Assembly (NCBI GenBank): GCA_903844645.1
Contig: CAIMUP010000013.1
Coordinates: forward strand, 1,428 to 65,427
Source: an uncultured Bacteroidota bacterium
Lineage (GTDB): Bacteria; Bacteroidota; Bacteroidia; AKYH767-A; JABDAW01
Length of the DNA: 64,000 nt
Direction: 5' to 3'
Shown: in pieces, positions 2,975-64,000 of the stretch
Numbering within the stretch: the stretch's first letter is position 1
Layout of the letters: the number at the start of each line of letters is the position of its first letter
Notes under the pieces: generated by a model
The model's input: the letters and a program-made list of their open reading frames with translations, nothing else
Told to the model about the DNA's origin: nothing
Databases searched by the model: none
Program-made: the position numbers and the translations under genes

Positions 2975-2983
2975 AAGATAACT

Positions 2984-3919: not shown

Positions 3920-4042
3920 AAGGGGTAAAATAAATTTTGATTAGATAGCTCGCCTGCCGATCTCCTGAATGTTTTTTCTCATTACAAATTTCCTTTTCTT
4001 GTATTTTTTCGAGTTCCCCGAGGAATGAAATTTCTTTAATCG

Positions 4043-4345
4043 AGGCATTAGGAAAAAAAGCAGGGCATCAAATTACCCAATTTCATACCTTAAGTTTTTG
4101 CTCAAGGCATCACATTACCCGATGTGTGGGGTTGAGCAAAAACTTAATGCTTCACATCATCCAATTTGGAGGTATGGGAAAAAAAGTAATGCCCCACATT
4201 ACCCGATTTTGGGGTATGGCAAAAAACCTAATGCCCCACATTACCCAATGTGATGGTATGGCAAAAAACCTAATGCCCCACCTTACCCAATGCGGGGGTA
4301 TGAGCAAAAAAGTAGTGCCTCACATTACCTAATGTGGGGGTGTGA
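4043..4345. repeat. Array B: 42-bp tandem repeat, about 7 copies, each with an internal hairpin
   Basis: The unit is gccccacattacccaatgtgatggtatggcaaaaaacctaat. The anchor gc(a/c/t)(t/c)cac falls at 4065, 4107, 4149, 4191, 4233, 4275 and 4317, a spacing of exactly 42. Each unit contains the dyad cacatt-accc-aatgtg. Confidence 0.95.
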
Positions 4346-4551
4346 TTTTCAATACATTCAAATATAAAATAAGAATCTCTAAAAATAGCCTCCAAGGTAG
4401 TGATCAAATAGAGCAATCAAAATAAAATAAAAAAATGATTAAATAAAATAATGAAAATTATGATAGACTTCGCAAAGTATTTTTTAATCCTTTTTATGAT
4501 AAATTCATTTACCGGGATAAATTGAAGCAATTTACCGAGGAAGGAGGTATT

Positions 4552-6018
4552 TTATAAACTCACTTTGGGATGAATTTTGTATTTTGCGATTAATAACAAG
4601 CCGATAAAAGTCAGCAGTCCGTTAATCATCAGCATCTCGAATCCGAATTGATAGGAGGTGAATAATTCTTTTGAATAAGTGTTCAGAAGGTAGCAAATTG
4701 TGGGCGGAAAAAGGGCGATGACAGGCACCAATTTATCCCTTACTTGCAGCTTCGTAAAGAGTCCGAAAACAAACAACCCGAGCAAGGGTCCGTAGGTATA
4801 ATTGGCGATGGTGAAGAGGTTATTCAGCACCGATTCTTTGATGGAGGTCTTGAAATAAACGATGACCAACAGCAAAATTATAGCGAAGCACAAATGCACC
4901 ACGCGGCGTACTTGCACTTGCTTCTTCTCGGTCCAGTTTTTTTCTCTGATACCGATAAAATCTATGCAGAAAGAGGTCGTCAAAGCGGTCAAAGCACCGT
5001 CAGCACTCGGGAAGGCTGCAGATATTAATCCGATAATGAAAAAAATACCGGAAACAGGTCCGAGAAAATGCAAGGCAATGGTCGGGAACAGGTCGTCTGA
5101 ATGCACCGGTATCGCAATGTTTTTCGCAGCAGCGAACAGGTAAAGCAATGCCCCCAAACAAAGGAACATAATGTTCACAAAGAAGAGAATAATACTGAAG
5201 GTGAACATGTTTTTTTGGGATTCTTTGAGGGTCTTGCACGAGATATTCTTTTGCATCATCTCTTGGTCTAAGCCCGTCATAGCGATAGCGATAAAAGCAC
5301 CGCCAAAGAAGTGCTTCAAGAAGAATTTTTTGTCGTTAAAATCAGTAACGAAGATGGCGGAATGCGGACGGTTTTTGATATTTGAAATCATATCGGTAAT
5401 GGAGAAGTTCAGTTCTTTCCCGATAAGATAAATCGTGATTACCACGGCTAATAACATGAAGGTTGTTTGCAAGGTATCTGTCCAAACAATCGTCTTTACG
5501 CCGCCCTGAAAGGTATAAAGTAAAATCAATACGATGAATGCCGCAACCGTTACTGTGAAAGGGATTCCCCACTCATCGAAAACGAATATCTGTAACACAT
5601 TAACCACAATATAAAGCCTGAATGACGCACCAATTACTCGCGAAAGCAGGAAGAAAAAAGCACCTGTTTTGTAACTGTATGCCCCGAAGCGTTGCAGTAG
5701 ATAGGAATAGATGGAAGTGAGGTTTAATCTATAATAAAGTGGCAGTAAGATGGTGGCGATAACAGCATACCCGACCATGTATCCTAAGACCATCTGGAAG
5801 TAAGCGAAGTGTTGCGGACCCACCCCTCCGGGTACCGACATAAAGGTTACACCGGATAGCGAAGCACCGATCATTCCGTAGGCTACCAGATACCATTTCG
5901 AGGACCTGTTGCCGATGAAGTAGGTTTCATTCGTGGCGTTGCGGCTGGTAAGATATGTGATGAGGAAAAGCACCGCAGAATACACCACCACGCAGGTTAA
6001 AAGTAAAGAAGGAGTCAT
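4552..6018 (-). CDS. sodium:solute symporter (SSS) family transporter
   Basis: It is a polytopic membrane protein of about 13 TM segments with an SSS-like N-terminus (ETYFIGNRSSKWYLVAYGMIGASLSGVTF). The start was chosen at the internal Met (MTPSLLL); the ORF extends to 6069. Confidence 0.8.
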   Translation of the reverse strand: MTPSLLLTCVVVYSAVLFLITYLTSRNATNETYFIGNRSSKWYLVAYGMIGASLSGVTFMSVPGGVGPQHFAYFQMVLGYMVGYAVIATILLPLYYRLNLTSIYSYLLQRFGAYSYKTGAFFFLLSRVIGASFRLYIVVNVLQIFVFDEWGIPFTVTVAAFIVLILLYTFQGGVKTIVWTDTLQTTFMLLAVVITIYLIGKELNFSITDMISNIKNRPHSAIFVTDFNDKKFFLKHFFGGAFIAIAMTGLDQEMMQKNISCKTLKESQKNMFTFSIILFFVNIMFLCLGALLYLFAAAKNIAIPVHSDDLFPTIALHFLGPVSGIFFIIGLISAAFPSADGALTALTTSFCIDFIGIREKNWTEKKQVQVRRVVHLCFAIILLLVIVYFKTSIKESVLNNLFTIANYTYGPLLGLFVFGLFTKLQVRDKLVPVIALFPPTICYLLNTYSKELFTSYQFGFEMLMINGLLTFIGLLLIAKYKIHPKVSL

Positions 6019-6058
6019 TGTTTTTTTATAAGATGAGCAAAGAAACATAAAAGTATGG

Positions 6059-6066
6059 TAATTTTG
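6059..6066 (+). promoter_or_regulatory. candidate Bacteroidota-type -7 box (TAnnTTTG) for the decarboxylase gene
   Basis: The sequence taattttg lies 21 nt upstream of the ATG at 6087. Confidence 0.35.
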
Positions 6067-6086
6067 CAACCTGAATCAAAGAAATC

Positions 6087-7532
6087 ATGATAGAAAAGAT
6101 AAAAGCATTTGAAGAAATAGCACGGCAACTGGAGCCGAATGCCCCTATTCGTAAGGGAGTCAGGAAGAAGGTGATAGATTATACAGAAGATTTTCTGGAT
6201 AACATTTATTCTCTGAAAGCCTACGAACAAACTGATGATCAAGGCAAAGGACTCTTCGATTCTCCCATTAATGATGTTACGATAGACATTGAGGAGGCGA
6301 TACAAATCATCTTCGAGAATGTGGATACGCAAGGATTGAATCCGGCTTCTGGCGGACATCTTGGGTATATCCCCGGTGGTGGCATCTATTATTCTGCTTT
6401 GGCAGATTATATGGCAGCTATTACCAATCGGTATGCAGGAATTTTCTTTGCCTCGCAAGGTGCGGTAAGGATGGAGAACCTGTTGATAAAATGGATGGCT
6501 AATATCGTAGGCTATGACGAAGCCGCAAGTGGAAACCTTACCACTGGCGGCAGCCTTGCCAATCTTATCGCGATAGTTACCGCCAGAGATGCCCATAATA
6601 TTAAAGCGAAAGACATCGAGAAAACCGTTATTTATTTGAGTGAGCAAGCACATCACAGCGTGGAGAAAGCCATCCGTATTGCGGGCATGAATGAATGCCA
6701 AAAACGCTTCCTTCCGATGGATGAAAGGTATCGTATCAAACCTGATGCTTTGGAAGAATATATCAAACAAGATCTATCCGATGGCTTGAAGCCCTGGTTG
6801 GTGATCGCTGCTGCCGGAACGACTGATGTTGGGGCGGTGGACCCCTTGGATAAGATAGGAACCATTGCCAATGAATACAACCTTTGGTTTCATGTGGATG
6901 GTGCTTATGGCGGCTTCTTCGCCTTGACCGATGAAGGTAAAACAATCCTCAAAGGCATCGAGAAATCTGACTCCGTAATCATGGATCCGCATAAAAGTTT
7001 GTTCCTGCCTTACGGGCTTGGCGTGGTCTTGATAAAGGACAAGAAACACCTCTACCATGCCCATCATTACTTCGCCAATTACATGCAAGACACCTTGAAA
7101 AATGCCGATGAATTATCCCCCGCAGACCTCTCGCCAGAACTTACCAAACACTACCGCAGCCTGCGATTGTGGCTCCCCCTGAAACTCCACGGCGTAGCCC
7201 CCTTCCGTGCCGCTTTGGAAGAGAAATTACTACTCGCAAAATACTTCTACGACAAGATAAAAACCACCAAAGGCTTCGAGGTATTGATAGCCCCGCAACT
7301 CTCCGTCATCATCTTCCGATACATCCCCAAAAGCGGCGATGCGAACGCCTTCAACGAACGCATCATTCAGGAAATTCACAAAGACGGACGCATCTTCTTT
7401 TCCTCCACCACCATCAACGGAAACTACATGCTGCGCCTCGCCATCCTCTCCTTCCGAACACACCTCGAAACGGTAGATTTAGCCCTCCAAATCATCAATG
7501 AAAAAGTAGCGTTATTAAACCTCAAACCTTAA
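6087..7532 (+). CDS. PLP-dependent group II (aromatic-amino-acid type) decarboxylase
   Basis: It carries HVDGAYGG and the PLP-lysine motif DPHKSLFLPYG, at 481 aa. The substrate cannot be told from the sequence. Confidence 0.85.
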   Translation: MIEKIKAFEEIARQLEPNAPIRKGVRKKVIDYTEDFLDNIYSLKAYEQTDDQGKGLFDSPINDVTIDIEEAIQIIFENVDTQGLNPASGGHLGYIPGGGIYYSALADYMAAITNRYAGIFFASQGAVRMENLLIKWMANIVGYDEAASGNLTTGGSLANLIAIVTARDAHNIKAKDIEKTVIYLSEQAHHSVEKAIRIAGMNECQKRFLPMDERYRIKPDALEEYIKQDLSDGLKPWLVIAAAGTTDVGAVDPLDKIGTIANEYNLWFHVDGAYGGFFALTDEGKTILKGIEKSDSVIMDPHKSLFLPYGLGVVLIKDKKHLYHAHHYFANYMQDTLKNADELSPADLSPELTKHYRSLRLWLPLKLHGVAPFRAALEEKLLLAKYFYDKIKTTKGFEVLIAPQLSVIIFRYIPKSGDANAFNERIIQEIHKDGRIFFSSTTINGNYMLRLAILSFRTHLETVDLALQIINEKVALLNLKP

Positions 7533-7570
7533 AGCCTTTACATCTTCACGACCATTATTAAATAAAAAAA

Positions 7571-7596
7571 AGTGGCATTTTTTTATGCCGCTTTAT
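7571..7596 (+). terminator. possible rho-independent terminator after the decarboxylase gene
   Basis: The stem agtggcat/atgccgct (one G-U pair) has a T-rich loop and a T-rich tail. Confidence 0.4.
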
Positions 7597-7639
7597 AAAT
7601 ATTTCTTTGATAGAAGTTGGTAAAGTGAGAAATTATTAG

Positions 7640-7647
7640 TAGTTTTG
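7640..7647 (+). promoter_or_regulatory. candidate -7 box (TAnnTTTG) for the T9SS cargo gene at 7672
   Basis: The box reads tagttttg, with a TTG at 7617-7619 about 20 nt upstream. Confidence 0.35.
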
Positions 7648-7671
7648 TGCGCTCAAATAAAAAACACATAG

Positions 7672-8652
7672 ATGAAAAACTCCCACCTACTCTTTTTCTT
7701 TTTTCTTTTTATAATCGGAAAGCCAATGATTGCGCAGAATCTTGTTCCGAACCCAAGTTTCGAGTTACATGATAGCTGCCCTGATAATGAAGACCAAATA
7801 CAAAGAGCAATAGGATGGTCTAAATACAGTAATATTGCTTCTACTCCTGATTATTATAATGCCTGTGATACTGGTGGACAGTTATGCGTGCCACCAGTTA
7901 ATGGGGGATTTACTCAATCATCAGCACATAGTGGTCATGCTTATGGAGCAGTTGTAACATTTGCTAAACAAATTCATAATTATCGTGAGTATATCGGTAT
8001 ACAATTATCTCAATCTTTAACTATTGGTCAGGATTATTTTCTCTCCTTTTATACAACCACTGGAGAAGTATGGGGTTTAGGAATGCCTTCAAATAATCTT
8101 GGTATTCGTTTATCAACTGTTGCTTTTAATCCAAATAATCCAACTCCAATTAATAATTATGCTCATTTATATTCTTCGGCAATTATTAGTGATACCATAA
8201 ACTGGGTACATGTTTCCGGAACAATAACAGCAGATTCGACTTATCATTATTTGGTAATTGGTAATTTCTTTACTGATAGCCTCACGGACACGATTTGCTG
8301 GCGACAGACAAATTCATTAGAATGTTATTATGCAGTTGACGATATTTGCATTACACCTGCTGCTGATTCAATGATATGTATGGAGTTCACTTCAGTTGAT
8401 GAAATAAAATTTCCCGAGGATATTAATGTATTTCCAAATCCGGCAACTGATTTTGTAAATATCGTTTTCGATGAAAATCAAGAAACGGAAATTATATTAT
8501 TTGATATGTTAGGGAATACGATTTACAAGAATCTAATTACAAATAAGAGCGCAAGATTATGTATATCTGCTATTCCGCGTGGATGTTATGAATTAAAAAT
8601 TACCAGCAAGAGAGATTATAAAACTTATATAAAAAAAATTGTTAAACTATAA
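7672..8652 (+). CDS. secreted protein with a T9SS type A C-terminal sorting domain
   Basis: It has a signal peptide, an N-terminal LVPNPSFE motif and a C-terminal VFPNPATDFVNIVF...YELKI block typical of Por/T9SS CTDs. Confidence 0.7.
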   Translation: MKNSHLLFFFFLFIIGKPMIAQNLVPNPSFELHDSCPDNEDQIQRAIGWSKYSNIASTPDYYNACDTGGQLCVPPVNGGFTQSSAHSGHAYGAVVTFAKQIHNYREYIGIQLSQSLTIGQDYFLSFYTTTGEVWGLGMPSNNLGIRLSTVAFNPNNPTPINNYAHLYSSAIISDTINWVHVSGTITADSTYHYLVIGNFFTDSLTDTICWRQTNSLECYYAVDDICITPAADSMICMEFTSVDEIKFPEDINVFPNPATDFVNIVFDENQETEIILFDMLGNTIYKNLITNKSARLCISAIPRGCYELKITSKRDYKTYIKKIVKL

Positions 8653-8718
8653 AAAAATAAAATGAAAAACTATTGCTTTCGGTTTAGGAAAAATGCAGGG
8701 CGGTTTAGCTTTTATATT

Positions 8719-8926
8719 GACCTGTTTAAAGTTTATGTCGGTCTGTTTAAAGTTTGTATCGGTCTGTTTAAAGTTTAAACAGGTCTGTTTAAAGTTTGTA
8801 TCGGTCTGTTTAAAGTTTAAACAGGTCTGTTTAAAGTTTAAACAGGTCTGTTTAAAGTTTGTATCGGTCTGTTTAAAGTTTAAACAGACCTGTTTAAAAT
8901 TTGTACAGACCTGTTTAAAAACTATA
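8719..8926. repeat. Array C: 21-bp tandem repeat, about 10 copies, two alternating variants
   Basis: The units are ggtctgtttaaagtttgtatc and ggtctgtttaaagtttaaaca, starting at 8719, 8740 ... 8908. Junctions of the b-type variant create the 9-bp inverted repeat tttaaacag-gt-ctgtttaaa. Confidence 0.95.
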
Positions 8927-9076
8927 TTGACATAGTAAAATGTTATTAATCATAGCATTTATGCTTTTCAGAGGGTAAAATATGCAATAATTACTAAAAA
9001 TAAATCTTCAGAAAATAGTTTAATCGGAATATTATCCCGTTCTTTGCCGCCGTAAAACCAATAAATACATATTAAA

Positions 9077-9712
9077 ATGTCTAACCTACTACCAGGCACA
9101 CCGATAAAAGCAAGTCGCAAATTCATGACTTTCGGAAGAGTAAAGCTTATTGCTGAATATGAATTAGTGAAAACGGGAATGACCAGTCCTGCCGGCATCG
9201 GTCATTATGCAAATCCTACGGTTGCATTCGCCACCATGGACCCTATCAAGCAGGCAATTACTGATGCCTATAACTTAAAAGATAAGGTAACGATGCGGGC
9301 AAGGATCAAGGATTTGAAAGATGACATGCGCAAGAACGCGACTTTTGCTGAAGAACATTGTAACAACGACCTCGCCACGTTGTTATTGAGCGGTTACAAA
9401 GAAGCTCAACAGGGTGGTGGTCCTGAAATAGCCATTGGCGGCACTACTAATTTGAAAGCTGGCGATACAGGAATTGTTGGCGAAATGAAAGGAACTTACA
9501 GAAGACCAGCTGGAACGAAACATGTCGAGGGATGGAGCAAGTTACACAGTGCTCCGGAAACTGCCTGGGCATTGACTGCTGTGACAGATGTCGGAGAAAT
9601 CTTCTGGACAGGCGTAGCGAAAGGTGTGGAAAACGATTACAAAGTTCGTAGTGGTGCCGGTCGCAGAAAAGGTGCATTCAGTTCGGTAGTTACCGAGATT
9701 TGCAGGTATTAA
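9077..9712 (+). CDS. orphan protein P1 (array-fronted, unknown function)
   Basis: This 211-aa ORF has no signal peptide, a helical N-terminal half and a beta-rich C-terminal half. It is preceded by array C and followed by a hairpin terminator. Confidence 0.6.
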   Translation: MSNLLPGTPIKASRKFMTFGRVKLIAEYELVKTGMTSPAGIGHYANPTVAFATMDPIKQAITDAYNLKDKVTMRARIKDLKDDMRKNATFAEEHCNNDLATLLLSGYKEAQQGGGPEIAIGGTTNLKAGDTGIVGEMKGTYRRPAGTKHVEGWSKLHSAPETAWALTAVTDVGEIFWTGVAKGVENDYKVRSGAGRRKGAFSSVVTEICRY

Positions 9713-9735
9713 TTTAAGAATTAAATAAACAGGAA

Positions 9736-9768
9736 AGCCTTCGAATTGCAACATTCGGGGGCTTTTTA
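9736..9768. terminator. hairpin terminator between convergent P1 and acpH
   Basis: The stem agccttcgaa / ttcgggggct is 10 bp (two G-U pairs) and is followed by ttttt. Confidence 0.6.
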
Positions 9769-10356
9769 ATTTCTATTTGATGCCAATTTATCTTTCGCGA
9801 ATTCCATAATCTGCGGGAAGAACTCCTTGAATTCCTCGGCATATAAATCGTAATCTTTTTTTAAATCATGAATCGAAAGTTCCATCTTCGATTGGAATTT
9901 GGCACGGCGAGCCATCCCCGCCAACACCCGTTCCATCCCCTCGAAGTTAGCATAATTATAGAGCCAATTATATTCTATCATATACGGCATCATCCGCCGA
10001 ATACCTGCCGGAAGAATGGCATCCCTCGCAAGGACTATCTCGTAACAAGATTCGGAATAATCGCTTAATGAAATGTCGGAATAATCCCCCCAGTTCGCAG
10101 CCAGGAAATGGTCGTAGAAGATGTCAATAATCACCGGGGAATATTTGTGATACATCGGTCTCAACCGAACTTTTCCACGCTCCACAATAGGGTGCGTATC
10201 GGTGAATTCATCAATGCCGCGATGCAGTTCGATGCCTTTAATAATACCTACCGAATAACCATCGTAATGCTTGCCCACGACCTGGTCGGCAATAAAATTC
10301 CCAATCATTACTTCAGGGTCATCCCCCGAAAGGTAAAGATGAGCGAGAAAATTCAA
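9766..10356 (-). CDS. acpH: acyl carrier protein phosphodiesterase (AcpH family)
   Basis: The N-terminus MNFLAHLYLSGDDPEVMIGNFIADQVVGK is characteristic of AcpH/DUF479, at 196 aa. Confidence 0.8.
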   Translation of the reverse strand: MNFLAHLYLSGDDPEVMIGNFIADQVVGKHYDGYSVGIIKGIELHRGIDEFTDTHPIVERGKVRLRPMYHKYSPVIIDIFYDHFLAANWGDYSDISLSDYSESCYEIVLARDAILPAGIRRMMPYMIEYNWLYNYANFEGMERVLAGMARRAKFQSKMELSIHDLKKDYDLYAEEFKEFFPQIMEFAKDKLASNRN

Positions 10357-10362
10357 TTGGAA

Positions 10363-10923
10363 TTACTTCACCTTTCCGCAGTAGCCGGAAGTGCGGGTAT
10401 CTATCTTAATAATCTCCCCGATATTCACGAAAAGCGGCACCTGAATCTCGGCACCAGTCTCCAGAGTAGCGGCTTTGAGGGTATTGGTAGCGGTGTTTCC
10501 GCGTTCGCCAGGCTCGGTATAGGTAACTTCTAATTCCACAAAAGTCGGCACATCGCCAATGATCGGGGTCTCGCCCTCGAAGGCTACTTTCACAATCATT
10601 TCTTCTTTGAGGAAACGAACATTTTCCCCGAATAATTCCTCGGGAATATGTACCTGTTCGTAAGTTTCATTATCCATACAAACCAAGTGCTCACCTTCTT
10701 TGTAGATGAATTGCAGTTCCTTGTATTCCATCCTGACCAGCTCCACTTCCTCGCCAGATCGGAAGCGATATTCTGCCGATTTGCCGGTCTTTACATTCTT
10801 CATTTTAGCTTGATAGAAAGCACGAAGATTTCCCGGAGTCCGGTGTTGGTATTCGGTTATTACGCACAATTCGCCGTTGAATCTAATGACCGATCCGAGA
10901 TGAATATCTGATGTTGTTGCCAT
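10363..10923 (-). CDS. efp: translation elongation factor P
   Basis: This 186-aa protein has the N-terminal IRFNGELCVITEYQHRTPGNLRAFYQAKMKNVKTG pattern typical of EF-P. Confidence 0.95.
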   Translation of the reverse strand: MATTSDIHLGSVIRFNGELCVITEYQHRTPGNLRAFYQAKMKNVKTGKSAEYRFRSGEEVELVRMEYKELQFIYKEGEHLVCMDNETYEQVHIPEELFGENVRFLKEEMIVKVAFEGETPIIGDVPTFVELEVTYTEPGERGNTATNTLKAATLETGAEIQVPLFVNIGEIIKIDTRTSGYCGKVK

Positions 10924-11009
10924 AGTCTTTATTAAATATAAATTATTATTAAGGGCGGCAAAAATAGGAAAAGGATTTGAGAATGGAATTCGGGCAGTGC
11001 AAATGGTTA

Positions 11010-12275
11010 TTAATTGTTGTTGGATTTTGTTTTAGAATAATGATGCTTCAAGAAAACAAACCAGGCAATGAGTGTACATACCGCCCCCAGCCACATCGTG
11101 AAACTAATCAGTTGAGCCACTACGAAACCCGCTAATATCGGGGGAATGGCTGATGATAGCGAGATGATGCTTTGGTTGATGCCGATGATCTCTCCCTGGA
11201 TTGTTTTATCTGTTGAATTAGAGACGATGGCAAGGGAATTAGGATAGACGAATCCTTGGAATATCGGCAGGAATGGGAACCAGATAAGCGTCATGATGAA
11301 GTCAGTAGGGATGAGCATCAACAGATAACTCAACGCAAAGACGGGCATGAAGATGAGCATGGCGCGTTCCGGCGTGAAATATTTGGTAATCGGGCGGATG
11401 AGGATGCCTTGCGTGATGCCCACCCAGAGGCTGAACCAGGCAATGACATAGCCTAATGTCTTGACATCGAAATCGAACTTTATCTTGGCATATTCCTGAT
11501 AATAAATAATGAAAAAAGCGAAGCCGAGATTCATCAAGAAGATGACAGCGAAGATGTTCTTGAGGTCAGCATTGCGAAAGGCTGTCCTTACATTCCGGAA
11601 GCCTGTAAGAGGAGAAATAATGCTGTCGGGATTGCTGTGAATCATGTCAGGGAATTTAATCAGAAGGAAAATAACATTGGCTAAGGAAAGCAAAGCGATG
11701 AAGAAAAAGGGAGTTGCGAAATTGAACCAACTGACAATGGAAGGGTCAGATAAAAGCCCGCTGCATATAGCTCCTACGATGAATCCCATGCCGAAGCCAA
11801 CGCCGACTAATCCGAAGTTCTTTGCCTTGTTTTCATCCGTACTGTAATCTGCTATGGCAGATTGAACCACCGGCAAACTTGTTCCGCCTAAGCCCGCCAA
11901 AGTCCTTGCGGTGAGCAGTATATAATATTCTTTAAGATAGATTCCAAGCGCGAAAAGCAAGTAGCAAAAGATATTCACAGTGAAGGCAAAAGCGATGACT
12001 TTCTTTCTCCCTATCCTATCCGATATGGCTCCGAGAATAGGTGCTCCGATGAATTGTCCCAGCGACCAGAAGCCCGCCATCAGCCCGAACTTCAAGGTCT
12101 TTTCTGATAATGGAACGGAGGAAGCGAAGATGCTTTGCTTGGCATCGAAATAGATGGAAGCAAAGATCGGGAACGCTACTCCCATCGCGAAATAGTCAAT
12201 GAAGACGGTGAGGAAAATGATGAACAGCGAGAGGTTTGTGTTTTTGTTATTTGGAGAGGATGTTAGCATTGGCAT
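11010..12275 (-). CDS. MFS transporter (drug:H+ antiporter-like)
   Basis: It has a 12-TM layout and MFS motif A (GAISDRIGRKKVI). Confidence 0.85.
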   Translation of the reverse strand: MPMLTSSPNNKNTNLSLFIIFLTVFIDYFAMGVAFPIFASIYFDAKQSIFASSVPLSEKTLKFGLMAGFWSLGQFIGAPILGAISDRIGRKKVIAFAFTVNIFCYLLFALGIYLKEYYILLTARTLAGLGGTSLPVVQSAIADYSTDENKAKNFGLVGVGFGMGFIVGAICSGLLSDPSIVSWFNFATPFFFIALLSLANVIFLLIKFPDMIHSNPDSIISPLTGFRNVRTAFRNADLKNIFAVIFLMNLGFAFFIIYYQEYAKIKFDFDVKTLGYVIAWFSLWVGITQGILIRPITKYFTPERAMLIFMPVFALSYLLMLIPTDFIMTLIWFPFLPIFQGFVYPNSLAIVSNSTDKTIQGEIIGINQSIISLSSAIPPILAGFVVAQLISFTMWLGAVCTLIAWFVFLKHHYSKTKSNNN

Positions 12276-13761
12276 AATGTTTTTTGTTATGGATTAAATA
12301 ATTCAATTGGTACAAAGAGAATTTAGAATTACTCCAAAGCAAAAGAGGCTTATCGGGATAAATCATTAGGAATTTTTTTGTAGAATCATCGGGGAGGTCG
12401 GTGCAGGTCAAGAGGTATTGAACATTGTACTTCAAATTATTATATGCAATGCTTTCTAATGATTGATTGGCACATAAAATTGTTCGGCGATCAGTATAGA
12501 GATTCAATGCCCTTGGCTTGTTGAATGCAATTTTTGCATCCATCGGAGTATTCCTTTTTATATATTCAAATGCTTCGACAGCTTCTGCTTCCTGCGGTCC
12601 TGGCAAGGTTTCGTTTTGATGTCGGATGATGTTGATGGCACTGAATGAATAAGGAATCAGGATGAATAAGCCGAGAGAAAGGATGATGATATTCTTCTTG
12701 AGTGGGGAATTAATCTTCACCATCATTAAACCAATTACAGTATAATAAATAAGGATGGGAAAGACAGGAAATAAGAATCGCATTCCTGAATTCATATCGG
12801 GATAAAGCAGGAGCGCAAAGAGATAGATGATGACGAAGAAGTCAATGAAATCAACCTTCCTGAAACATTTCTTCAGGAAGCCGATGGTGGTAAATAGCAC
12901 CACCAGCCATTGTGTAAGGATGGCGAGTAAAGGGAATACACCTCCGCCAGACATGAAGAAATATCTGAACGAATGGAGGTAATAACTTGCCTTCATTCGC
13001 AAGATAGGAAAGGATATTGAAGCGAAGTATTCACTGCCGATACCTATTTTAAACAATGCCTTAAAGTCTATCAATACAAACACTATCGTGATGGTGATGA
13101 CTAATGCTCGCTTCATTATTTCAAGTTTTATAGCATTGTTTCTTCTGTTTTTCCATAAGGATATGATGTCTTCAAGAATCAAAGCGGCAAGCAGCACAAT
13201 GCCGATGGTTCGGATGGAAATAAGGATGCCGAGAAGCAATCCGGTAAGGAGATATTTCAATGTCTTGTTTCCTTTTGTCTTTGAATAAACAAGGATCACA
13301 AGGATCAGGAATAAGGTGAATGGAATATCAGACATGATCTCCTCTTTGAAGTTCAAAGTGAAGGGATTATAGGCGAAGATCAGGACTAACAAGATGGAGA
13401 CAAGATCGCTGAAATGCTTGCGGTAGAAGGAAAAGAGTGCTATGCAGAGCAGGAATAGGATAAATGTAACAGTGATGACAAATCCTTTTATACTATTCCC
13501 AACATACAGACAAGTCATTGCCAGGATGAGTGGGAAACCCACAGGACGAGCGGAGATATGCACTCCCGGACTTCTTATATCATCAATGAATCCCGTCGCT
13601 GATTGCGGAATTCCTTTGGTGATGTTTATCGCTTGATGAATGTATTGCGCGAAGTCGTCGCCCCAGTCGTGGCTGTTGCGGATATTGATGAAGAACAAGG
13701 GAATACAGAGGGCATACACAAGTGCAGATGCCATGAACTTCCTCTTAAACAACTTATCCAT
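12247..13761 (-). CDS. polytopic membrane glycosyltransferase-like protein (GT-C / family 39-like, tentative)
   Basis: It has many TM segments, an N-terminal [13 protein letters not shown] loop and a soluble C-terminal domain. The start is uncertain (ORF runs to 13794), and it overlaps the upstream gene end and the downstream MFS start. Confidence 0.6.
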
Positions 13762-15334: not shown

Positions 15335-15546
15335 GATGGTGGCAAAGAAAGGAAATTCGTGGGGCAGGGATGGAAAACTTTTTTTTCAGAGAATTGTATT
15401 TCTCCACTATTTTTAGTATCATTGCAACCTCGAACAAAAAATGAAGCCTCAAAACACATATAATAATCTCGCAAATCTCTCCAATAATTTTGGAGGTGGG
15501 GCTTGCATATTAAATAGAGTTTGTGTAAACTCGAAGCCGCCTCAAT

Positions 15547-15577
<31 letters not shown>

Positions 15578-15658
15578 CAAATTTTTTGAAATAACCAAAT
15601 CGGAGAACACTTTTTCTGGTTCGGTTCAAAAAATTTCGTTTTCCTTTTCTAATCTTTC

Positions 15659-15951
15659 ATTAAAGTTTCCAAAAATTTCCGCGATTTTTCAGGAATCTTG
15701 GTCAAGTCGCCAGAGTTTTGACCAAAGTTTCATACGCCCCAGCCAAAGTGTGCCGAACTTCAGCCAAAGTTTTGGAAACTTTGACCAAAGTCCAGCGACT
15801 TTGACCAAAGTAGATGAAGATTCGGTTGAGGTTTCTGAAACTTTGACCAAAGTGGGCTTCACCGTGGTCAAAGTTTCTGCTTTCTCGCCCAAAGTTTCCG
15901 GAAATTCCTCCAAAGTTTCCCAAAAATCCCCCAAAGTTTCTGAAACTTCGG
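15659..15951. repeat. Array D: degenerate 21-bp-phased array with conserved core CCAAAGT(TT)
   Basis: Core starts fall at 15722, 15743, 15764, 15785, 15805, 15847, 15868, 15889, 15910 and 15931, giving spacings of 21,21,21,20,42,21,21,21,21. The sequence between cores is variable. Confidence 0.85.
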
Positions 15952-16076
15952 GACCTGTAGGAAGAATATTGGCTGTAAATCAGTCCATTTCTTTCCTGAC
16001 TTCGATTTTCGAGGTCCTTTTACAAAATCCCGCTAACGGAATCCAAATAGAAATTTAATAACTTAATAAATAAACT

Positions 16077-28646: not shown

Positions 28647-28850
28647 TTCACCCTTTTGAGGGATTGTTTTAGGAACTAATACCTTGTAATTTTGCATCCT
28701 TAATTACAAACAATGGATCATTACAATCACATAGCGAATACAACGGATAGCAATCACGACAGAGGCAATGCTTCTGGAAGGTTTTTCAATGGTGGCGGTA
28801 GTGATATGGATACAAATTGTAGTTTAAACATATGCCAAAAAAACTCAAAC

Positions 28851-29102
28851 ATATCTTTTAGTAACAATAAGATACCTTTTAGTAACAATAAGATACCTTT
28901 TAGTAACAATAAGATACCTTTTAGTAACAATAAGATACCTTTTAGTAACATAAAGATATGTTTTAGTAACAAAAAGATACCTTTTAGTAACAAAAAGATA
29001 CCTTTTAGTAACAAAAAGATACCTTTTAGTAACAAAAAGATATGTTTTAGTAACAAAAAGATACCTTTTAGTAACAATAAGATATGTTTTAGTTTTTCTC
29101 AC
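28851..29102. repeat. Array E: 21-bp tandem repeat, about 12 copies
   Basis: The unit is ataccttttagtaacaataag, with variants atatg... and ...aaaaag. Starts fall at 28851, 28872 ... 29082. Confidence 0.95.
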
Positions 29103-34682: not shown

Positions 34683-34864
34683 GTACACGTGTACAATTCG
34701 TCCTGCAACTGTGTCGGAGGCAATGTTCGGTGTACTTTGCCCCAACACAGTTGTGTTTGCCAATTCTACATGTGTACTATTGGCAAACACAGTTACTTTT
34801 GCAGAAGTACACGTGTAGAATTGGCAAACACAACTGTGTTTGCCAAATGTACACGTGTACATTC
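34683..34864. repeat. Array F: roughly 42-bp tandem repeat, about 4.3 copies, built from two alternating palindromes
   Basis: It alternates GTACACGTGTAC (12-bp palindrome at 34683, 34807, 34849; degenerate at 34725, 34766) with AATTGGCAAACACA-ACTGTGTTTGCCAAAT (30-bp palindrome). The dyad centres are 21 bp apart. Confidence 0.9.
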
Positions 34865-37950: not shown

Positions 37951-38202
37951 ATGAATATCTTTTGCTTCGGGATGAATATCCTTTGCTTCGGGATGAATAT
38001 CCTTTGCTTCGGGATGAATATCCTTTGCTTCGGGGTGAATATCTTTTGCTTCGGGGTGAATATCTTTTGCTTCGGGATGAATATCCTTTGCTTCGGGATG
38101 AATATCCTTTGCTTCGGGATGAATATCTTTTGCTTCGGGATGAATATCTTTTGCATCGGGATGAATATCTTTTCATCCGGCTTCAATACATTTTCATCCC
38201 GG
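37951..38202. repeat. Array G: 21-bp tandem repeat, 12 copies
   Basis: The unit is atgaatatcctttgcttcggg. Starts fall at 37951, 37972 ... 38182. It lies between the terminator at 37870-37908 and the ppiC-type gene at 38399. Confidence 0.95.
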
Positions 38203-38358
38203 GTTAATGTCTTACATGAACTTTTCCCCGTTATAAAACCCGATTTGGAGGGGTAAAAAGGGAGGTTTTTGGAAATTCTCCACCCTCCATTTCCCACTTT
38301 TAAGTCTCCATTCCCCATTTTCCATTCCCCATTCTTTTTCCATTGTCAGGAAATTTTA

Positions 38359-41277: not shown

Positions 41278-41445
41278 TATTAAATACGACTACAATGATG
41301 CCGTCATCTCCTACAATGATAGCGTCATCTACTACAATTATGCCGTCATCTACTACAATTATGCCGTCATCTACTACAATGATGGCGTCATCTACTACAA
41401 TTATGCCGTCATCTACTACAATGATGGCAACTTCGACTACACATT
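41278..41445. repeat. Array H: 21-bp tandem repeat, 8 copies
   Basis: The unit is tgccgtcatctactacaatta. Starts fall at 41278, 41299 ... 41425. The array ends 15 bp before the surA-like ATG (41460). Confidence 0.95.
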
Positions 41446-43868: not shown

Positions 43869-44162
43869 CGGCTGTTGATTGGAGAAAGTCGGCTGTTGAT
43901 TGGGGAAAGTTGACTGTTGATTGGGGAAAGTCGGCTGTTGATTGGGGAAAGTCGGCTGTTGATTGGGGAAAGTTGACTGTTGATTGGGGAAAGTCGGCTG
44001 TTGATTGGGGAAAGTCGGCTGTTGATTGGGGAAACATGGACGTAGATTGGGGAAACATGGACGTAGATTGCGGAAACATGGACGTAGATTGGGGAAACAT
44101 GGAGGTAGATTGTAGAAACATGGAGGTAGATTGCAGAAACATGGAGGTAGATGGGTTTTACA
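43869..44162. repeat. Array I: 21-bp tandem repeat, 14 copies in two subfamilies
   Basis: It has 8 units of (c/t)g(g/a)ctgttgattggggaaagt, arranged cgg,cgg,tga in a 63-bp higher order. Six units of tgga(c/g)gtagattgnngaaaca follow. Starts fall at 43869 ... 44142. Confidence 0.95.
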
Positions 44163-49926: not shown

Positions 49927-50162
49927 CCGACCGGATTTGGGAAAGATGCGGTCGGATATTTCCTTTCTCCGGTCGGATATTTCTTTTTTCCGGTCGGATA
50001 TTTCTTTTTTCCGGTCGGATATTTCTTTTTTCCGGTCGGATATTTCTTTTTTCCGGTCGGATATTTCCTTTTTCCGGTCGGAGATTTCTTTTTTCCGGTC
50101 GGAGATTTCCTGTTTCCGGTCGGAGATTTCCTTTTTCCGGTCGGATATTTCCCGTTACCGAC
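49927..50162. repeat. Array J: 21-bp tandem repeat, about 11 copies
   Basis: The unit is ccggtcggatatttctttttt. The anchor ggtcgga falls at 49950, 49971, 49992 ... 50139. It lies between dgkA and the alpha-oxoamine synthase gene. Confidence 0.95.
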
Positions 50163-50299: not shown

Positions 50300-51691
<1,392 letters not shown>

Positions 51692-53853: not shown

Positions 53854-54368
53854 GTCATTTTGAGCCAAAACGGTACCTATTTACTGAAATTCGGTAAGGT
53901 TTTCCCGATATTCTCTGCATAATCCTACGATATTACCTTGATATTTGATTATATATCGAAGGAAATCTCTCATAAATAATCCCAAAAAAGACTTATTTAC
54001 TAAGAATGGTCTATACTTTTATCCAGCGAAACGATGGTTTCATCGGGCTAAACCATAGTTTAAACAGATATTAGACCTCTTTCATTGTTGTCTTTTCAAT
54101 GATCGTATAACAATCTCGGAGGGACGGCATCTTTTTTTATTCGGTAGTAAACGATGATTTATAATAGAGGTCTATTCTTGGGAATAACTATCTAAATCGT
54201 GTGAAATGTGATCTTATACAGGCAGTTTCGGTAGTAAATAGGGGTAGTAATGATCTCGTCCAGAGGGTATTTAATAGTGTTTGGAAGGGTTCTTTAGGTA
54301 ATAATAATGAATGTGTACATACATTTTGTTCGGTGTATATGCCGCCGAGTTATTACAATATAAATTAT

Positions 54369-54558
54369 CCGTCATCATATATGAAAACGGACAATCGTAA
54401 TAGTTATTATTGTATTAACTATTGTAATTATTGCTTTAGCAATAGTAAATATGACCATAACGATACCTTGGGCGATATTTTCTATCGTTACTGCAATAAT
54501 AACATATGTAAAAGGTATCCTTAGGATACCAATTATACGTTTTCATATATGATGACGG
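54369..54558. repeat. perfect 21-nt inverted repeat pair flanking 148 bp
   Basis: The sequence ccgtcatcatatatgaaaacg (54369-54389) has its exact reverse complement cgttttcatatatgatgacgg at 54538-54558. Confidence 0.9.
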
Positions 54559-54579
54559 ACGAAAAGGATAGTAAAAGCT

Positions 54580-54748
54580 GTTATCACGATAGTTATTGTT
54601 GTTATCACAATGGTAAAAGCGGTTATCACAATAGTTATTGCTGTTATCACAATAGTTATTGTAGTTATCACAATAGTTATTGCAGCTATTACAATTGTAA
54701 AAGCAGTTATTATAATAGCTATAACAGTATTCACGATAGCGATGACAA
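54580..54748. repeat. Array L: 21-bp tandem repeat, 8 copies
   Basis: The unit is gttatcacaatagttattgct. Starts fall at 54580, 54601 ... 54727. Related, degenerate reverse-orientation copies lie at about 54390-54450. Confidence 0.85.
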
Positions 54749-58026: not shown

Positions 58027-58152
58027 GGCTGCGAATGATTTCGTCGTGACTGCGACTATTTTCATCATGACTGCGACCATTTCCGACTAGATTGCGACTA
58101 TTTTCATCGTGACTGCGACCATTTCCGACTAGATTGCGACCATTTTCATCGG
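58027..58152. repeat. Array M: 21-bp tandem repeat, 6 copies with a 42-bp higher order
   Basis: The units gactgcgaccatttccgacta and gattgcgactattttcatcgt alternate. Starts fall at 58027 (degenerate), 58048, 58069, 58090, 58111 and 58132. Confidence 0.9.
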
Positions 58153-60431: not shown

Positions 60432-61655
60432 TTACTTCTCACCTTCTAAATCATGCCCCATTTTATCCCGTTTCGTGTTGAGATAATCCTTGTTATGGAT
60501 GTTCGATTTTATTGCAATCGGTACGTTTTCCACGATCTCCAGACCATATCCTATCAAGCCCGCTCGCTTCGTCGGGTTATTCGACATTAATTTCATTTTC
60601 GTTACGCCCAAATTCCTTAATATTTGAGCACCCACCCCGTAATCCCTTTCATCCATCTTGAACCCGAGAGCAATATTTGCCTCCACCGTATCCATTCCTT
60701 CTTCTTGCAGTTTGTATGCCCTTAATTTATTCAACAATCCGATGCCCCTTCCCTCTTGATTGATGTAAACTAAAACCCCTTTCCCGGCTTCTTCAATCAT
60801 CTTCAAGGCTCTATGAAGTTGAGGTCCGCAATCGCAGCGGCAACTCCCGAAAATATCACCGGTAAGGCATGACGAATGTACCCTTACCAACACCGCTTCG
60901 TCCTTCTCCCATGTGCCTTTGATGATAGCAAGGTGCTCTTGATCGGTGTTGATTTGTTTGTAAGCGATTAACTTAAAATCGCCCCAGGCTGTCGGCAAAT
61001 TCACCGTTACTTCCTTCTCAATAAGGCTCTCTTTCGAGAGGCGGTATTTGATTAAATCCTCTATCGAAATTATCTTCAAATCGAATCGTTCGGCTATCTT
61101 GAAAAGGTTCGGCAGACGCGCCATCGTACCGTCTTCATTCATTATTTCTACCAGCACTCCCGCCGCTTCGAAGCCGGCTAAGGATGAAATATCAACCGTT
61201 GCTTCCGTATGTCCGGCTCTTCTTAAAACACCGCCATGCTTTGCTTTCAAAGGGAAAATATGTCCCGGTCTGCCCAGATCTTTTGGCATGGTTTCAGGAT
61301 TAATTAAAGCCTGAATCGTCTTGCTTCTATCGCTTGCCGAGATGCCTGTCGTGCAGCCATGTCCCAACAAATCCACCGAGATGGTGAATGGTGTTTCATG
61401 CGACGAGGTGTTCTTCGTAACCATCATATCTAATGCCAATTCCGCGCACCGTTCTTCGGTAATCGAGGCACAAATCAAGCCTCTGCCGTGGGTCGCCATA
61501 AAGTTCACAATATCAGGCGTCGCGTTGCGGGCAGCAGTTACGAAGTCGCCCTCGTTTTCGCGGTCCTCATCATCCACTACGATGATTACTTTACCTTGCC
61601 TGATGTCTTCCAGAGCCTCTTCGATGGTATTTAATTTATGTTGTACGATGTTCAT
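60432..61655 (-). CDS. ribBA: bifunctional 3,4-dihydroxy-2-butanone-4-phosphate synthase / GTP cyclohydrolase II
   Basis: The RibB half has [10 protein letters not shown] and HTEA. The RibA half has [15 protein letters not shown] and NQEGRGIGL. Confidence 0.95.
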
Positions 61656-61929
61656 GGCGTGTTTTTTAATTCTATGGCGGCGAAATTAAGAAAATTGTTG
61701 GCGTTCGATTATCCGTTCTCGATCATTCGCAATCTTTATCCAAAGATACGTTTTCTCTCATCAAAAAATACTCGGATTGGTACCAAGAAAAGCATCATGC
61801 AGATACCTTCTCTCGGTATTCATTCAGGGAATCGCGATCTGTTGGTTCAAAGACTCGTTTCTTATACACAATACTGCCTCTGTTGTATTCCATTCAGCCT
61901 CCTTTTAGCTGCTAATCGCGATTCTGAAG

Positions 61930-62242
61930 CCAAAAGTCGAGATATTGAAACAATGAATCGTACCCATTAACCACTTAATTGAAGTGAAAGACTATTTTAG
62001 TATAATGAATGACTCATTAAGTATAATGAAAGACTATTTTAGTATAATGAATGACTAAAACACTAATATGAAAGACTAATTACCAGACATGAAAGACCAC
62101 TTCATGTCTGGCAATTAGTCTTTCATATTAGTGAATTAGTCTTTTACCTTAATAAAGTAGTTAATCATTATACTAAAATAGTCTTTCACTTCAATTAAGT
62201 GGTTAATGGGTACGATTCATTGTTTCAAGGTCTCGACTTGGA
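61930..62242. repeat. Element N: roughly 313-bp nested imperfect palindrome built from the GAAAGAC motif on a 21/42-bp lattice
   Basis: The outer arms match over about 65 bp perfectly (61945-62009 vs 62165-62229), with imperfect extension to 61930 and 62242. The inner 33-bp stem (62061-62094 / 62101-62133) has one mismatch. GAAAGAC starts at 61986, 62028, 62070 and 62091, and GTCTTT(C/T) starts at 62118, 62139 and 62181. Confidence 0.9.
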
Positions 62243-62499
62243 ATGATAAAATGGAGGAATGGCATCCGATTATCGAGGTATTTAATAAGATAGAGGCGAT
62301 GAATAATACGATAATGACGATACCGAATCATCTGATCAAGATTCCCCAATAAATACCACCGAATACCGACCGATAGGAGGCGAAATGTGAAAACAGAACC
62401 GCTATTTTCGGTACCTTTCTCGGGAATAAAAGATAATAAGTCGCGATGAACATTCTTAGATATTCATCATCTTTATCAAGCCCGAAAAAAGGGAGTATC

Positions 62500-64000
62500 T
62501 TATTTTAAATTCTTCTTAGCCTGCTCGATAGTAATTTTTTTATCGCCACTAAAAGCGACCACAAAAGCATCTTTGATACCCGCATTCACGACCATATTTC
62601 GTAGCTGAACCGCAGTATCGTAATCCCTTACCGAACCAGCAAAATAATAGGTCAAACCATCAGCATCCTTGGTGTGGGAAATACCTTTGTTGCTTAATTT
62701 TAAGAACAGATCCACCACCTCAAACGGCACCTGCTCGCGGTATGCCCCGAGTTGCACTTTGAAGCTGATCGTAGCCGCATCAATCGTTTCTTCGGTAGCT
62801 TTAAATTCGGGTTGCTTCGGGGGTTGAACAGGCGTAGTGTCTTTAATAATAACAATCGGGTTTGCCTTTACCGGTGCGGGTTCTGGAGTTTTTGTCGGAG
62901 GAATCGGCGTAGTGAATTTCATTGGGATAACGGTCTTTTCCAACTCTCGGGCTTGGTTCAAATTGATTCTGGAACCCTTGTAATATGCAACCACAAAAGC
63001 ATCCGGAACAAGCGTCCTCGCGATGTTGTTTTTAGCTGCATCGGCAGGAGGAAAGTAATTATAAAGCCCCGATAAAAAACGATAATAACCCTTGGCAGTA
63101 ACTTCGGTATTTAATGGTTTTAATGATTCAAGAATACCAGGCGGAGTCGCATTTCCATACACACCAACCTGAACCGTGTAGAACAATCCTTCATTATTTT
63201 TAATGTTAAAAGAAGAGGTGTTGGTAGGCGTGTTGTTGTTTTGAACAGCGGTGTTAGATGCGTTATTCGGGACATCAATAGGGGTTTTGATAGCCGCCAC
63301 CGGGGAGGTTTTTACCGCATTCCTGAAGGTATAAAGATTAATGTCGTTAGCTTCTGGGGCATACTTTTCAGGATAGATATTGTTGGCTTTAAGCACCTTC
63401 GTTTCCTCGACATAAACAAACTGATAGGTTTGCTGTTGAGGCGAAGTGAGGGCATGAATTAGTAAGCCCGCATCGTATATAGAAATCCTTTTTCCATCTC
63501 TGTATGCCACCACAAAAGCATCCCGATAACCCATTGCTCTAATCTCTTTCTTAGCCAAATTAGCACTCTCGAAAGTCTGGAATAAACCCGCAGTATAGCG
63601 CAACCACCCATTAGGTCCGTCCTCATAGGTAACAGGTTGTAAGCCTCTGAAAGCATCTCCCGAAACAGGTGCTCGGAATGCCCCAATCTGTACTTTAAAA
63701 TACAAGCCATCCGGTAATTTTTCGTTATGAGGAATTGGTTTTATTTCATTGTTGACAGTCTTCTCTTTGCTAATGTTAAAGACATATTTATTGGAAGAGG
63801 TATTTGCTTTTTCTTCCTTTAGTTTGTCGTTAATAATTTTTAAAGTATCTTTATTCGGTAAGTCAGATTTGTTGGCAACAACGGTCGTTGTGAGCTTTTC
63901 TTTTAGCATTATTGCCTCCGCTTTTTGATTATCCGATACTCTTGCCAAATCCTTTGCAACAACATAAATACTATCGGCATCATGTTGCTTGATTTCGGCA
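62500..64000 (-). CDS. SPOR-like repeat protein (5' end probably outside the window)
   Basis: It has four repeats of the pattern F.VQ(I/V/L)GA(F/Y)...........Y(R/Y).......A......(V/I)..G..DAFVVA(Y/F). My hand translation shows the frame stays open to position 64000. Confidence 0.65.
   Translation of the reverse strand, partial: AEIKQHDADSIYVVAKDLARVSDNQKAEAIMLKEKLTTTVVANKSDLPNKDTLKIINDKLKEEKANTSSNKYVFNISKEKTVNNEIKPIPHNEKLPDGLYFKVQIGAFRAPVSGDAFRGLQPVTYEDGPNGWLRYTAGLFQTFESANLAKKEIRAMGYRDAFVVAYRDGKRISIYDAGLLIHALTSPQQQTYQFVYVEETKVLKANNIYPEKYAPEANDINLYTFRNAVKTSPVAAIKTPIDVPNNASNTAVQNNNTPTNTSSFNIKNNEGLFYTVQVGVYGNATPPGILESLKPLNTEVTAKGYYRFLSGLYNYFPPADAAKNNIARTLVPDAFVVAYYKGSRINLNQARELEKTVIPMKFTTPIPPTKTPEPAPVKANPIVIIKDTTPVQPPKQPEFKATEETIDAATISFKVQLGAYREQVPFEVVDLFLKLSNKGISHTKDADGLTYYFAGSVRDYDTAVQLRNMVVNAGIKDAFVVAFSGDKKITIEQAKKNLK

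Follow-up and report, generated by a model that had tools for sequence, protein, structure and literature searches.

A 313-bp palindrome formed from a 21-nt tandem array in the chromosome of an uncultured Bacteroidota bacterium

Constant-length repeats and the arrays of the window

Bacterial tandem repeats of constant length and variable sequence come in two sizes only, 20-21 nt or 52 nt (Subirana & Messeguer 2021, PMC8161180). The 20-23 nt class is found in individual species of many bacterial groups; constant-length repeats are mostly non-coding and species-specific, and forms of 40-41 nt are related to the 20-21 nt class (PMC8161180, which cites J Bacteriol 2020, 202:e00229-20 for the same class). 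A length of 20-21 nt corresponds to two helical turns; the function of the repeats was unknown to the authors, who proposed nucleoid protein polymerisation or small RNAs as possible roles (PMC8161180). Here we analyse a 64-kb stretch of DNA from an uncultured Bacteroidota bacterium (contig CAIMUP010000013.1; hereafter the window), which carries arrays of this kind. We show that element N, a 313-bp imperfect palindrome at 61930-62242 between ribBA and the gene for a PD40+SPOR protein, consists of a 21-nt array and 45 bp of unique flank, duplicated in inverted orientation. The duplication is species-specific and, in the 80 kb of genome searched, occupies a single locus.

Tandem Repeats Finder detected 17 arrays of at least 50 bp in the window, and the period is 21 or 42 in 15 of them. 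Arrays are found in 13 of the 21 spacers of at least 100 bp and make up 28% of the intergenic DNA; three more lie in the 16 kb that flank the window. The thirteen period-21 arrays listed in Table 1 each have a different unit and are nearly all intergenic. Match within arrays ranges from 62 to 96%. When units of different arrays were compared, the best cyclic matches were no better than those of shuffled units, and no 4- to 7-mer occurred in more arrays than in shuffles, a comparison of limited power with 14 arrays. Among the arrays, the motif GAAAGAC is private to element N; only the 21-bp period is common to all. A first-pass annotation of the window had placed element N in the same lattice family as the other arrays; this holds for the period, while no sharing of sequence, GAAAGAC included, goes beyond chance.

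By size, variability and non-coding nature, the lattice fits the constant-length class. As in that class, unit size is constant, sequence differs from array to array, there are at least four copies (six and five in the two arms of element N), the arrays are generally non-coding (13 of those in the window are intergenic), and they are specific to a species and reach high numbers in some lineages only. The present host belongs to a lineage of uncultured Bacteroidota. Two differences can be observed. Firstly, the published arrays are head-to-tail; element N keeps this order within each arm, while its arms face each other head-to-head. Secondly, Bacillus has a species-wide short motif (PMC8161180), whereas none was seen here among 14 arrays, a number of limited power. 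The character string "palindrom" is absent from the text of the 2021 paper, to which this check was confined; relative to that paper, element N appears to represent a palindromic variant of the class that had not been described.

The arrays vary in unit number between natural populations. One contig of the same strain (L002) has an additional 21 nt at about 54642, within the array at 54567-54735, and at two arrays the genes of three other assemblies have coordinates shifted by 21, 42 and 63 nt. Unit number varies at 54567-54735, at 1859-2044 and at 6455-6664 of flanking contig L096, in samples that are otherwise 99.9-100% identical. The 21-nt arrays thus behave as variable-number tandem repeats. 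Hairpin potential of the units was considered as a driver of slippage and was rejected, as the results were mixed: some arrays have z = -2 to -14, others are near 0, and the arms of element N have z = +1.2 to +1.4. Two arrays with a period of 41-42 (4111-4341 and 34744-34861) carry small hairpins in their units (z = -4 and -14); these may be REP/BIME-like and distinct from the plain 21-nt arrays. A period-21 repeat of 2.5 copies at 15888-15940 lies in an open reading frame (ORF; 15441-16058) without a Pfam match, and would encode a seven-residue peptide repeat.

The tandem repeats of Borgs (PMC9879509) resemble these arrays in being locus-specific, present in many intergenic regions and able to enter gene ends (here at 51521-51690); their copy number also varies within populations, and slippage has been proposed. 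However, Borg units vary widely in length, against a fixed 21 here, their repeats are A-rich and perfect, against a match of 62-96% here, and Borgs are archaeal extrachromosomal elements while the present arrays are on a bacterial chromosome. No palindromic form has been described for Borgs. The array at 51521-51690 overlaps the 3' end of an aminotransferase gene (50300-51544), within which it starts; it encodes the C-terminal residues of the protein (AGDDDNL, then stop) and continues in frame (AGKDDNY) beyond the stop codon.

Plasmid iterons are direct repeats of 17-22 bp, with a spacing of about 22 bp, which sometimes occur in both orientations. Element N shares with them direct repeats phased at two helical turns and the presence of both orientations. 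In contrast to iterons, it is accompanied by no rep gene, origin context, AT-rich unwinding element or DnaA-box arrangement, and the window contains a dozen other arrays, each with its own sequence. A replication origin or terminus was also considered and rejected; GC skew merely tracks gene orientation.

Structure and independent confirmation of element N

The arms of element N, 61930-62097 and 62101-62242, are inverted about one centre, and G+C content is 29% compared with 41% for the whole window. Each of the six frames is interrupted by stop codons across the arrays; the element is non-coding, and a heptad-repeat peptide was rejected. Beyond the perfect outer arms, pairing reaches 61930 and 62242 with two mismatches and a 2-nt indel; the mismatches in the left outer flank are only at 61943-61944, and the indel is at 61934-61935. 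Feature coordinates are given in Table 1.

In 21-nt register the left arm reads A (TTAATTGAAGTGAAAGACTAT), B (TTTAGTATAATGAATGACTCA), A', B', C (AACACTAATATGAAAGACTAA) and D (TTACCAGACATGAAAGACCAC). The pair A B at 61975-62016 and the pair A' B' at 62017-62058 are a 42-bp direct duplication, 88% identical. The left arm exceeds the right by one net 21-nt unit. On the right, units B and X (62143-62184), which adjoin the perfect outer arm, are the most diverged from the left arm. Divergence between the arms is concentrated in the slippage-prone middle units; with the middle two or three units set aside, there are five mismatches in 108 aligned positions. It is the left arm alone whose GAAAGAC motif runs on into the central loop (CATGAA-AGACCAC-TTCATG). 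The units abut without spacers, so element N does not have the structure of a CRISPR array.

The period is strictly 21 in both arms. GAAAGAC starts at 61986, 62028, 62070 and 62091, and its complement at 62118 and 62181; these are six of the 12 GAAAGAC sites of the window and are 21 or 42 bp apart. By their coordinates, motifs on opposite arms are out of step by 27 + 21n bp, which is about half a helical turn.

Sequence comparison bears out the first-pass description of a long nested palindrome made of two head-to-head arrays of 21-nt units, with corrections of detail. The outer arms, put at about 65 bp with imperfect extension, are perfect over 64 bp and do extend imperfectly; the inner stem has the 33 bp and single mismatch ascribed to it, around a loop of 7 rather than 6 nt. 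The 42-bp duplication in the left arm is present, but the net excess of that arm is 21 nt and not 42. The listed motif positions stand except for 62139, which reads GTCTTTT and is one mismatch from the complement of GAAAGAC.

Table 1. Coordinates of element N, its neighbours and the period-21 arrays (window positions unless a contig is named)
Feature	Position	Strand	Remarks
Left outer flank	61930-61974	+	45 nt outside the 21-nt array; inverted copy at 62206-62242
Outer perfect arm, left copy	61945-62008	+	64 bp
Left array	61975-62100	+	six 21-nt units, TGAAWGAC in each; last unit enters the loop
Inner stem, left half	62061-62093	+	33 bp; pairs with 62101-62133; one mismatch at 62082
Central loop	62094-62100	+	7 nt, AGACCAC
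Right array	62101-62205	-	five inverted 21-nt units (other strand: A, B, X, C, D)
Outer perfect arm, right copy	62165-62228	-	64 bp; confirmed in L095
Right outer flank	62206-62242	-	inverted copy of 61930-61974
ribBA (DHBP synthase / GTP cyclohydrolase II)	60432-61655	-	start codon 275 nt from element N
Candidate ribBA promoter	61741-61748	-	TATCTTTG; sole TAnnTTTG match between palindrome and ribBA
Weak terminator-like hairpin	61787-61771	-	between palindrome and ribBA; consensus scan only
Weak terminator-like hairpin	62356-62376	-	between PD40/SPOR stop and palindrome; consensus scan only
PD40+SPOR protein gene, 3' end	62500-64000	-	1932 aa whole; stop codon 258 nt from element N
Period-21 array	1859-2044
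Period-21 array	8711-8919
Period-21 array	28847-29093
Period-21 array	37951-38213
Period-21 array	41289-41426
Period-21 array	43869-44152
Period-21 array	49949-50152
Period-21 array	51563-51690
Period-21 array	54567-54735
Period-21 array	58029-58151
Period-21 array, flanking contig	L095 6561-6744
Period-21 array, flanking contig	L096 2821-2979
Period-21 array, flanking contig	L096 6455-6664

The palindrome at 61930-62242 is confirmed as real by assemblies of other samples. A scaffold reached through a 48-aa ORF called on the right flank of element N (L095; ENA ERZ18667900, scaffold_1502) has as its first 2038 bases the window sequence 61963-64000, at 100% identity and without gaps; it takes in all six units of the left arm, the loop and the right arm in full. 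The exact RibBA protein is present on several metagenome contigs of the same strain. These show no mismatch to the window in the compared upstream region, and 0-2 substitutions over full contigs. The fetched contigs end at window-equivalent 62086, 61944, 61944, 61974 and 61894. The first of them (L001) reproduces 61656-62086, and thus the left arm up to 62086. Two (L002 and L003) stop at 61944, immediately outside the 64-bp perfect arm. L004 stops at 61974, 30 nt inside that arm, as would be expected of a k = 31 unitig. A further contig in ENA and NCBI starts at about 62090, as judged from gene coordinates, and mirrors the end of L001. Independent assemblies therefore carry the palindrome and break where a true inverted repeat would break them, which shows that it is genuine. 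Its absence from such assemblies had been named in the first-pass annotation as an outcome that would count against it; it is present, and L095 is identical across the centre.

Short-read contigs of this clade often end in 21/42-nt arrays or at the palindrome. Contig ends at repeats are seen in L089 (1-154 and 4688-4942), L096 (16634-16778) and L001-L005. The 21/42-nt arrays and the palindrome are thus systematic and reproducible break points for short-read assemblies.

Inverted duplication of an array

Element N folds far more stably than expected by chance. As minus-strand RNA it has a computed energy of -184.1 kcal/mol compared with -55.2 +/- 4.9 kcal/mol for dinucleotide shuffles (z = -26); as DNA, z = -30. 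For a 30-nt core of the arm, 0 matches are expected in shuffles. In contrast, an arm taken singly shows no self-structure (z = +1.2 to +1.4, with column-permuted arrays as reference). The whole structure therefore stems from the inverted duplication. The unique flank is inverted along with the array, which points to a duplication rather than an inversion.

We lean, with modest confidence, towards the explanation that element N is a fold-back inverted duplication of one 21-nt array, a by-product of the array instability of this lineage and not a dedicated device. Downstream of the PD40/SPOR gene there would at first have been a plain direct array of 21-nt units. A nascent strand with TTCATG at its end may then, during replication, have folded back on CATGAA, 7 nt upstream; extended on itself, it would have made an inverted copy of the array plus about 45 bp of unique flank before it returned to its template near 62242. 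Later drift of the arms would have consisted chiefly of gain, loss and conversion of 21-nt units (giving six and five), with the non-slipping parts staying about 95-100% alike. The loop continues the motif of the left arm only; the left arm is therefore likely to be the template copy, a copying direction read from the sequence. As double-stranded DNA, the resulting AT-rich inverted repeat of about 310 bp with a 7-nt spacer would be prone to form a cruciform or hairpin. Were it transcribed by read-through from the PD40/SPOR gene, its RNA would fold into a hairpin with about 150 bp and act as a barrier or processing site before the ribBA promoter.

Long palindromes are normally cleaved or deleted in model bacteria. 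In E. coli, where they are cruciform substrates of SbcCD, they are mostly engineered or transient, and are unstable. Element N resembles them in being a near-perfect inverted repeat with more than 150 bp per arm and a very short spacer, and the proposed fold-back origin matches the template-switch model of quasipalindromes. Unlike the E. coli palindromes, element N is at a natural chromosomal locus and is identical in several environmental samples.

Conversion of arrays into palindromes recurs in this genome and clade. A second head-to-head array is found at 54368-54559, between convergent genes and adjoining a direct 21-nt array of related units. It has a perfect 22-bp outer stem (CCGTCATCATATATGAAAACGG), its arms are 72% complementary and it is more degenerate; it is older than element N. 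In a relative whose RibBA is 92% identical (L087; JGI 3300021004), two copies of a palindromic element of 140-200 nt flank a 21-nt array at 6990-7780, and one copy has a perfect 100-nt palindrome at its centre (7030-7129).

The array trait is itself restricted to close relatives. Relatives with RibBA identity above 76% were obtained by protein search; those at 92%, 84% and 83% carry 21/42-nt arrays of different sequence, and those at 81% and at 76% or below are essentially without them. About 50 arrays occur in roughly 1.3 Mb of relatives' sequence, 11 of them with a period of 21-22. The palindrome itself is absent from these relatives, including those at 83% or above which share the array trait. 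Neither an orthologous nor a pre-duplication allele is present in these data; the neighbours of ribBA differ in each relative (92%, 84%, 83%, 81% and 76% or below), and in the closest PD40/SPOR homologue (71%) a permease gene follows. In an unrelated Bacteroidia metagenome-assembled genome (L011; JAUHWY010000039.1), positions 2547-13052 contain many (GAATGAT)n heptanucleotide arrays, interleaved at several loci with a conserved hairpin (GTAAAGACGGAATGCTTTCCGTCTCTC); this is a dispersed REP/STRR-like family.

Several observations weigh against a fold-back by-product. The history is read from one sequence, with no simple-array allele found in relatives. The palindrome is identical in all samples where it can be read, so the locus shows no instability. 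The search for copies within the genome spanned 80 kb (the window and 16 kb of flanking sequence), which leaves room for a low-copy dispersed element. Finally, a 64-bp perfect outer arm lies beside diverged middle units; this could be explained by selection or gene conversion that keeps the arms paired, and would then suggest a function.

Alternative explanations and significance

Element N might instead act as a functional RNA, a long hairpin in the 3' untranslated region of the PD40/SPOR gene or upstream of ribBA serving as terminator or insulator, stability element or RNase III substrate. We consider this unlikely. The very stable hairpin proposed in the first-pass annotation is supported by the computed fold, which is on the transcribed (minus) strand, and constant-length arrays have been reported to be transcribed in Bacillus coagulans (PMC8625621). 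The inner stem-loop alone is predicted at -55.6 kcal/mol and is followed by TTTCATATT; a terminator scan flagged this hairpin (20 pairs, seven of them G-C), but the tail, TTTCATATTA, is a poor U-tract, and a 150-bp stem is far above what a terminator needs. A separate weak terminator-like site also lies nearer to the PD40/SPOR gene end. Rfam covariance models gave no match in the window at gathering thresholds; at E <= 10 only generic miRNA-precursor hairpin models were returned, at 57 bits against a threshold of 211. The palindrome is not conserved in relatives, and there are no sequence variants, so there is no covariation signal to read.

The location of element N, between a gene end and a candidate promoter, also suits an RNA role. 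TATCTTTG matches the Bacteroidota -7 promoter consensus, TAnnTTTG, and may on this basis be the promoter of ribBA. Sigma-70-like promoters in both arms (TTGAAG-16-TATAAT) were considered and rejected, as matches are no more numerous than in shuffles; Bacteroidota housekeeping promoters use a different consensus.

It is still less likely that element N is a DNA-level protein-binding platform, in which 21-bp-phased TGAAAGAC sites, on one helical face per arm, bind a nucleoid-associated or regulatory protein near the ribBA promoter. The clustering of half the GAAAGAC sites of the window in element N fits this idea, as does the strict two-helical-turn period of all arrays, and polymerisation of a nucleoid protein on such repeats is a published hypothesis (PMC8161180). 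However, units differ and share no motif, so that sequence-specific binding would need one protein per array; the half-turn offset between the arms is also a misfit with simple dimeric symmetry. A flavin mononucleotide (FMN) riboswitch was not detected with Rfam before ribBA (61656-61930), which makes another form of control conceivable. It was equally undetected before ribBA in seven related loci (L006, L007, L010, L013, L014, L087 at 92% and L089 at 84%); its absence here therefore carries no meaning, and the relatives lack the palindrome as well.

We give little credence to a broader proposal in two forms: that the head-to-head array is the footprint of a strand-switch or fold-back synthesis which generates 21-nt repeats with a two-helical-turn ruler, or that it is a selected cruciform or double-stranded RNA element controlling ribBA or local nucleoid structure.

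A miniature inverted-repeat transposable element (MITE), or another non-autonomous palindromic mobile element that contains 21-nt repeats by chance, is improbable. Element N does look like one: it is 313 bp long, AT-rich, non-coding and intergenic, with inverted termini, although the terminal inverted repeats are present trivially, as the whole element is an inverted repeat. The two palindromic copies in one spacer of L087 and the 80-kb extent of the searchable genome also speak for it. However, the first-pass annotation had seen no target-site duplication and no transposase and had held a MITE to be unsupported, and all three points stand. Whichever boundary is taken within 61930-61945 and 62228-62242, the flanks (TTCTGAAG and AATGATAA) carry no direct repeat of 2 nt or longer, and 40 proteins of the window include no transposase. 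The arm and inner stem have no second copy in the 80 kb of genome, and no copy of element N occurs in 1.5 Mb of fetched relatives' loci, JGI metagenomes or IMG/VR. Its interior is a locus-specific 21-nt array, like the non-mobile arrays around it. In these data element N is without any sign of being a mobile element.

Correia/NEMIS, ERIC/IRU and Rickettsia RPE elements are multi-copy families of conserved sequence, and Correia elements have a TA target duplication. Element N is, like them, an AT-rich, non-coding, imperfect intergenic palindrome of 100-350 bp with the capacity to form an RNA hairpin. Unlike them, it is single-copy in the data searched, has no target-site duplication and is made from a local array.

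An assembly artefact, be it a chimera made by fold-back or two inverted repeat copies wrongly joined, is hardly credible: most short-read assemblies do break within element N, but they do so where a genuine 64-bp inverted repeat would lead one to expect, an assembly from another sample spans 61963-64000 at 100% identity and L001 covers 61656-62086, the arms are unequal (six and five units) and contain mismatches, and the flanks run on into different real genes.

The neighbourhood of element N is chromosomal. The 40 main proteins of the window are encoded by ordinary chromosomal genes (EF-P, GyrA, Ffh, type IX secretion system cargo and others). The gene called SPOR-like in the first-pass annotation does contain a SPOR domain, but the listed 482-aa ORF is only the C-terminal quarter of a gene that leaves the window end; L095 (538-6336) shows the full gene, which encodes the PD40+SPOR protein.

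This is a single locus, and the broader repeat phenomenon is already in the literature; the palindrome is unusual and has been independently verified. It is uncommon for a near-perfect palindrome that measures about 310 bp and has a 7-nt spacer to occur naturally and be stable across several environmental samples. The window shows fixed-length 20-21 nt bacterial repeats packed very densely in a lineage of uncultured Bacteroidota; it further shows that arrays of this kind can turn into long palindromes and that their copy number changes by whole units between natural populations. If the head-to-head array is indeed a footprint of repeat-generating synthesis or a selected element, this lineage, in which 13 of 21 spacers hold arrays, two arrays within 64 kb are palindromised and copy number varies by 21-nt steps between samples, would be a tractable system for asking why bacterial repeats are locked to 21 nt.

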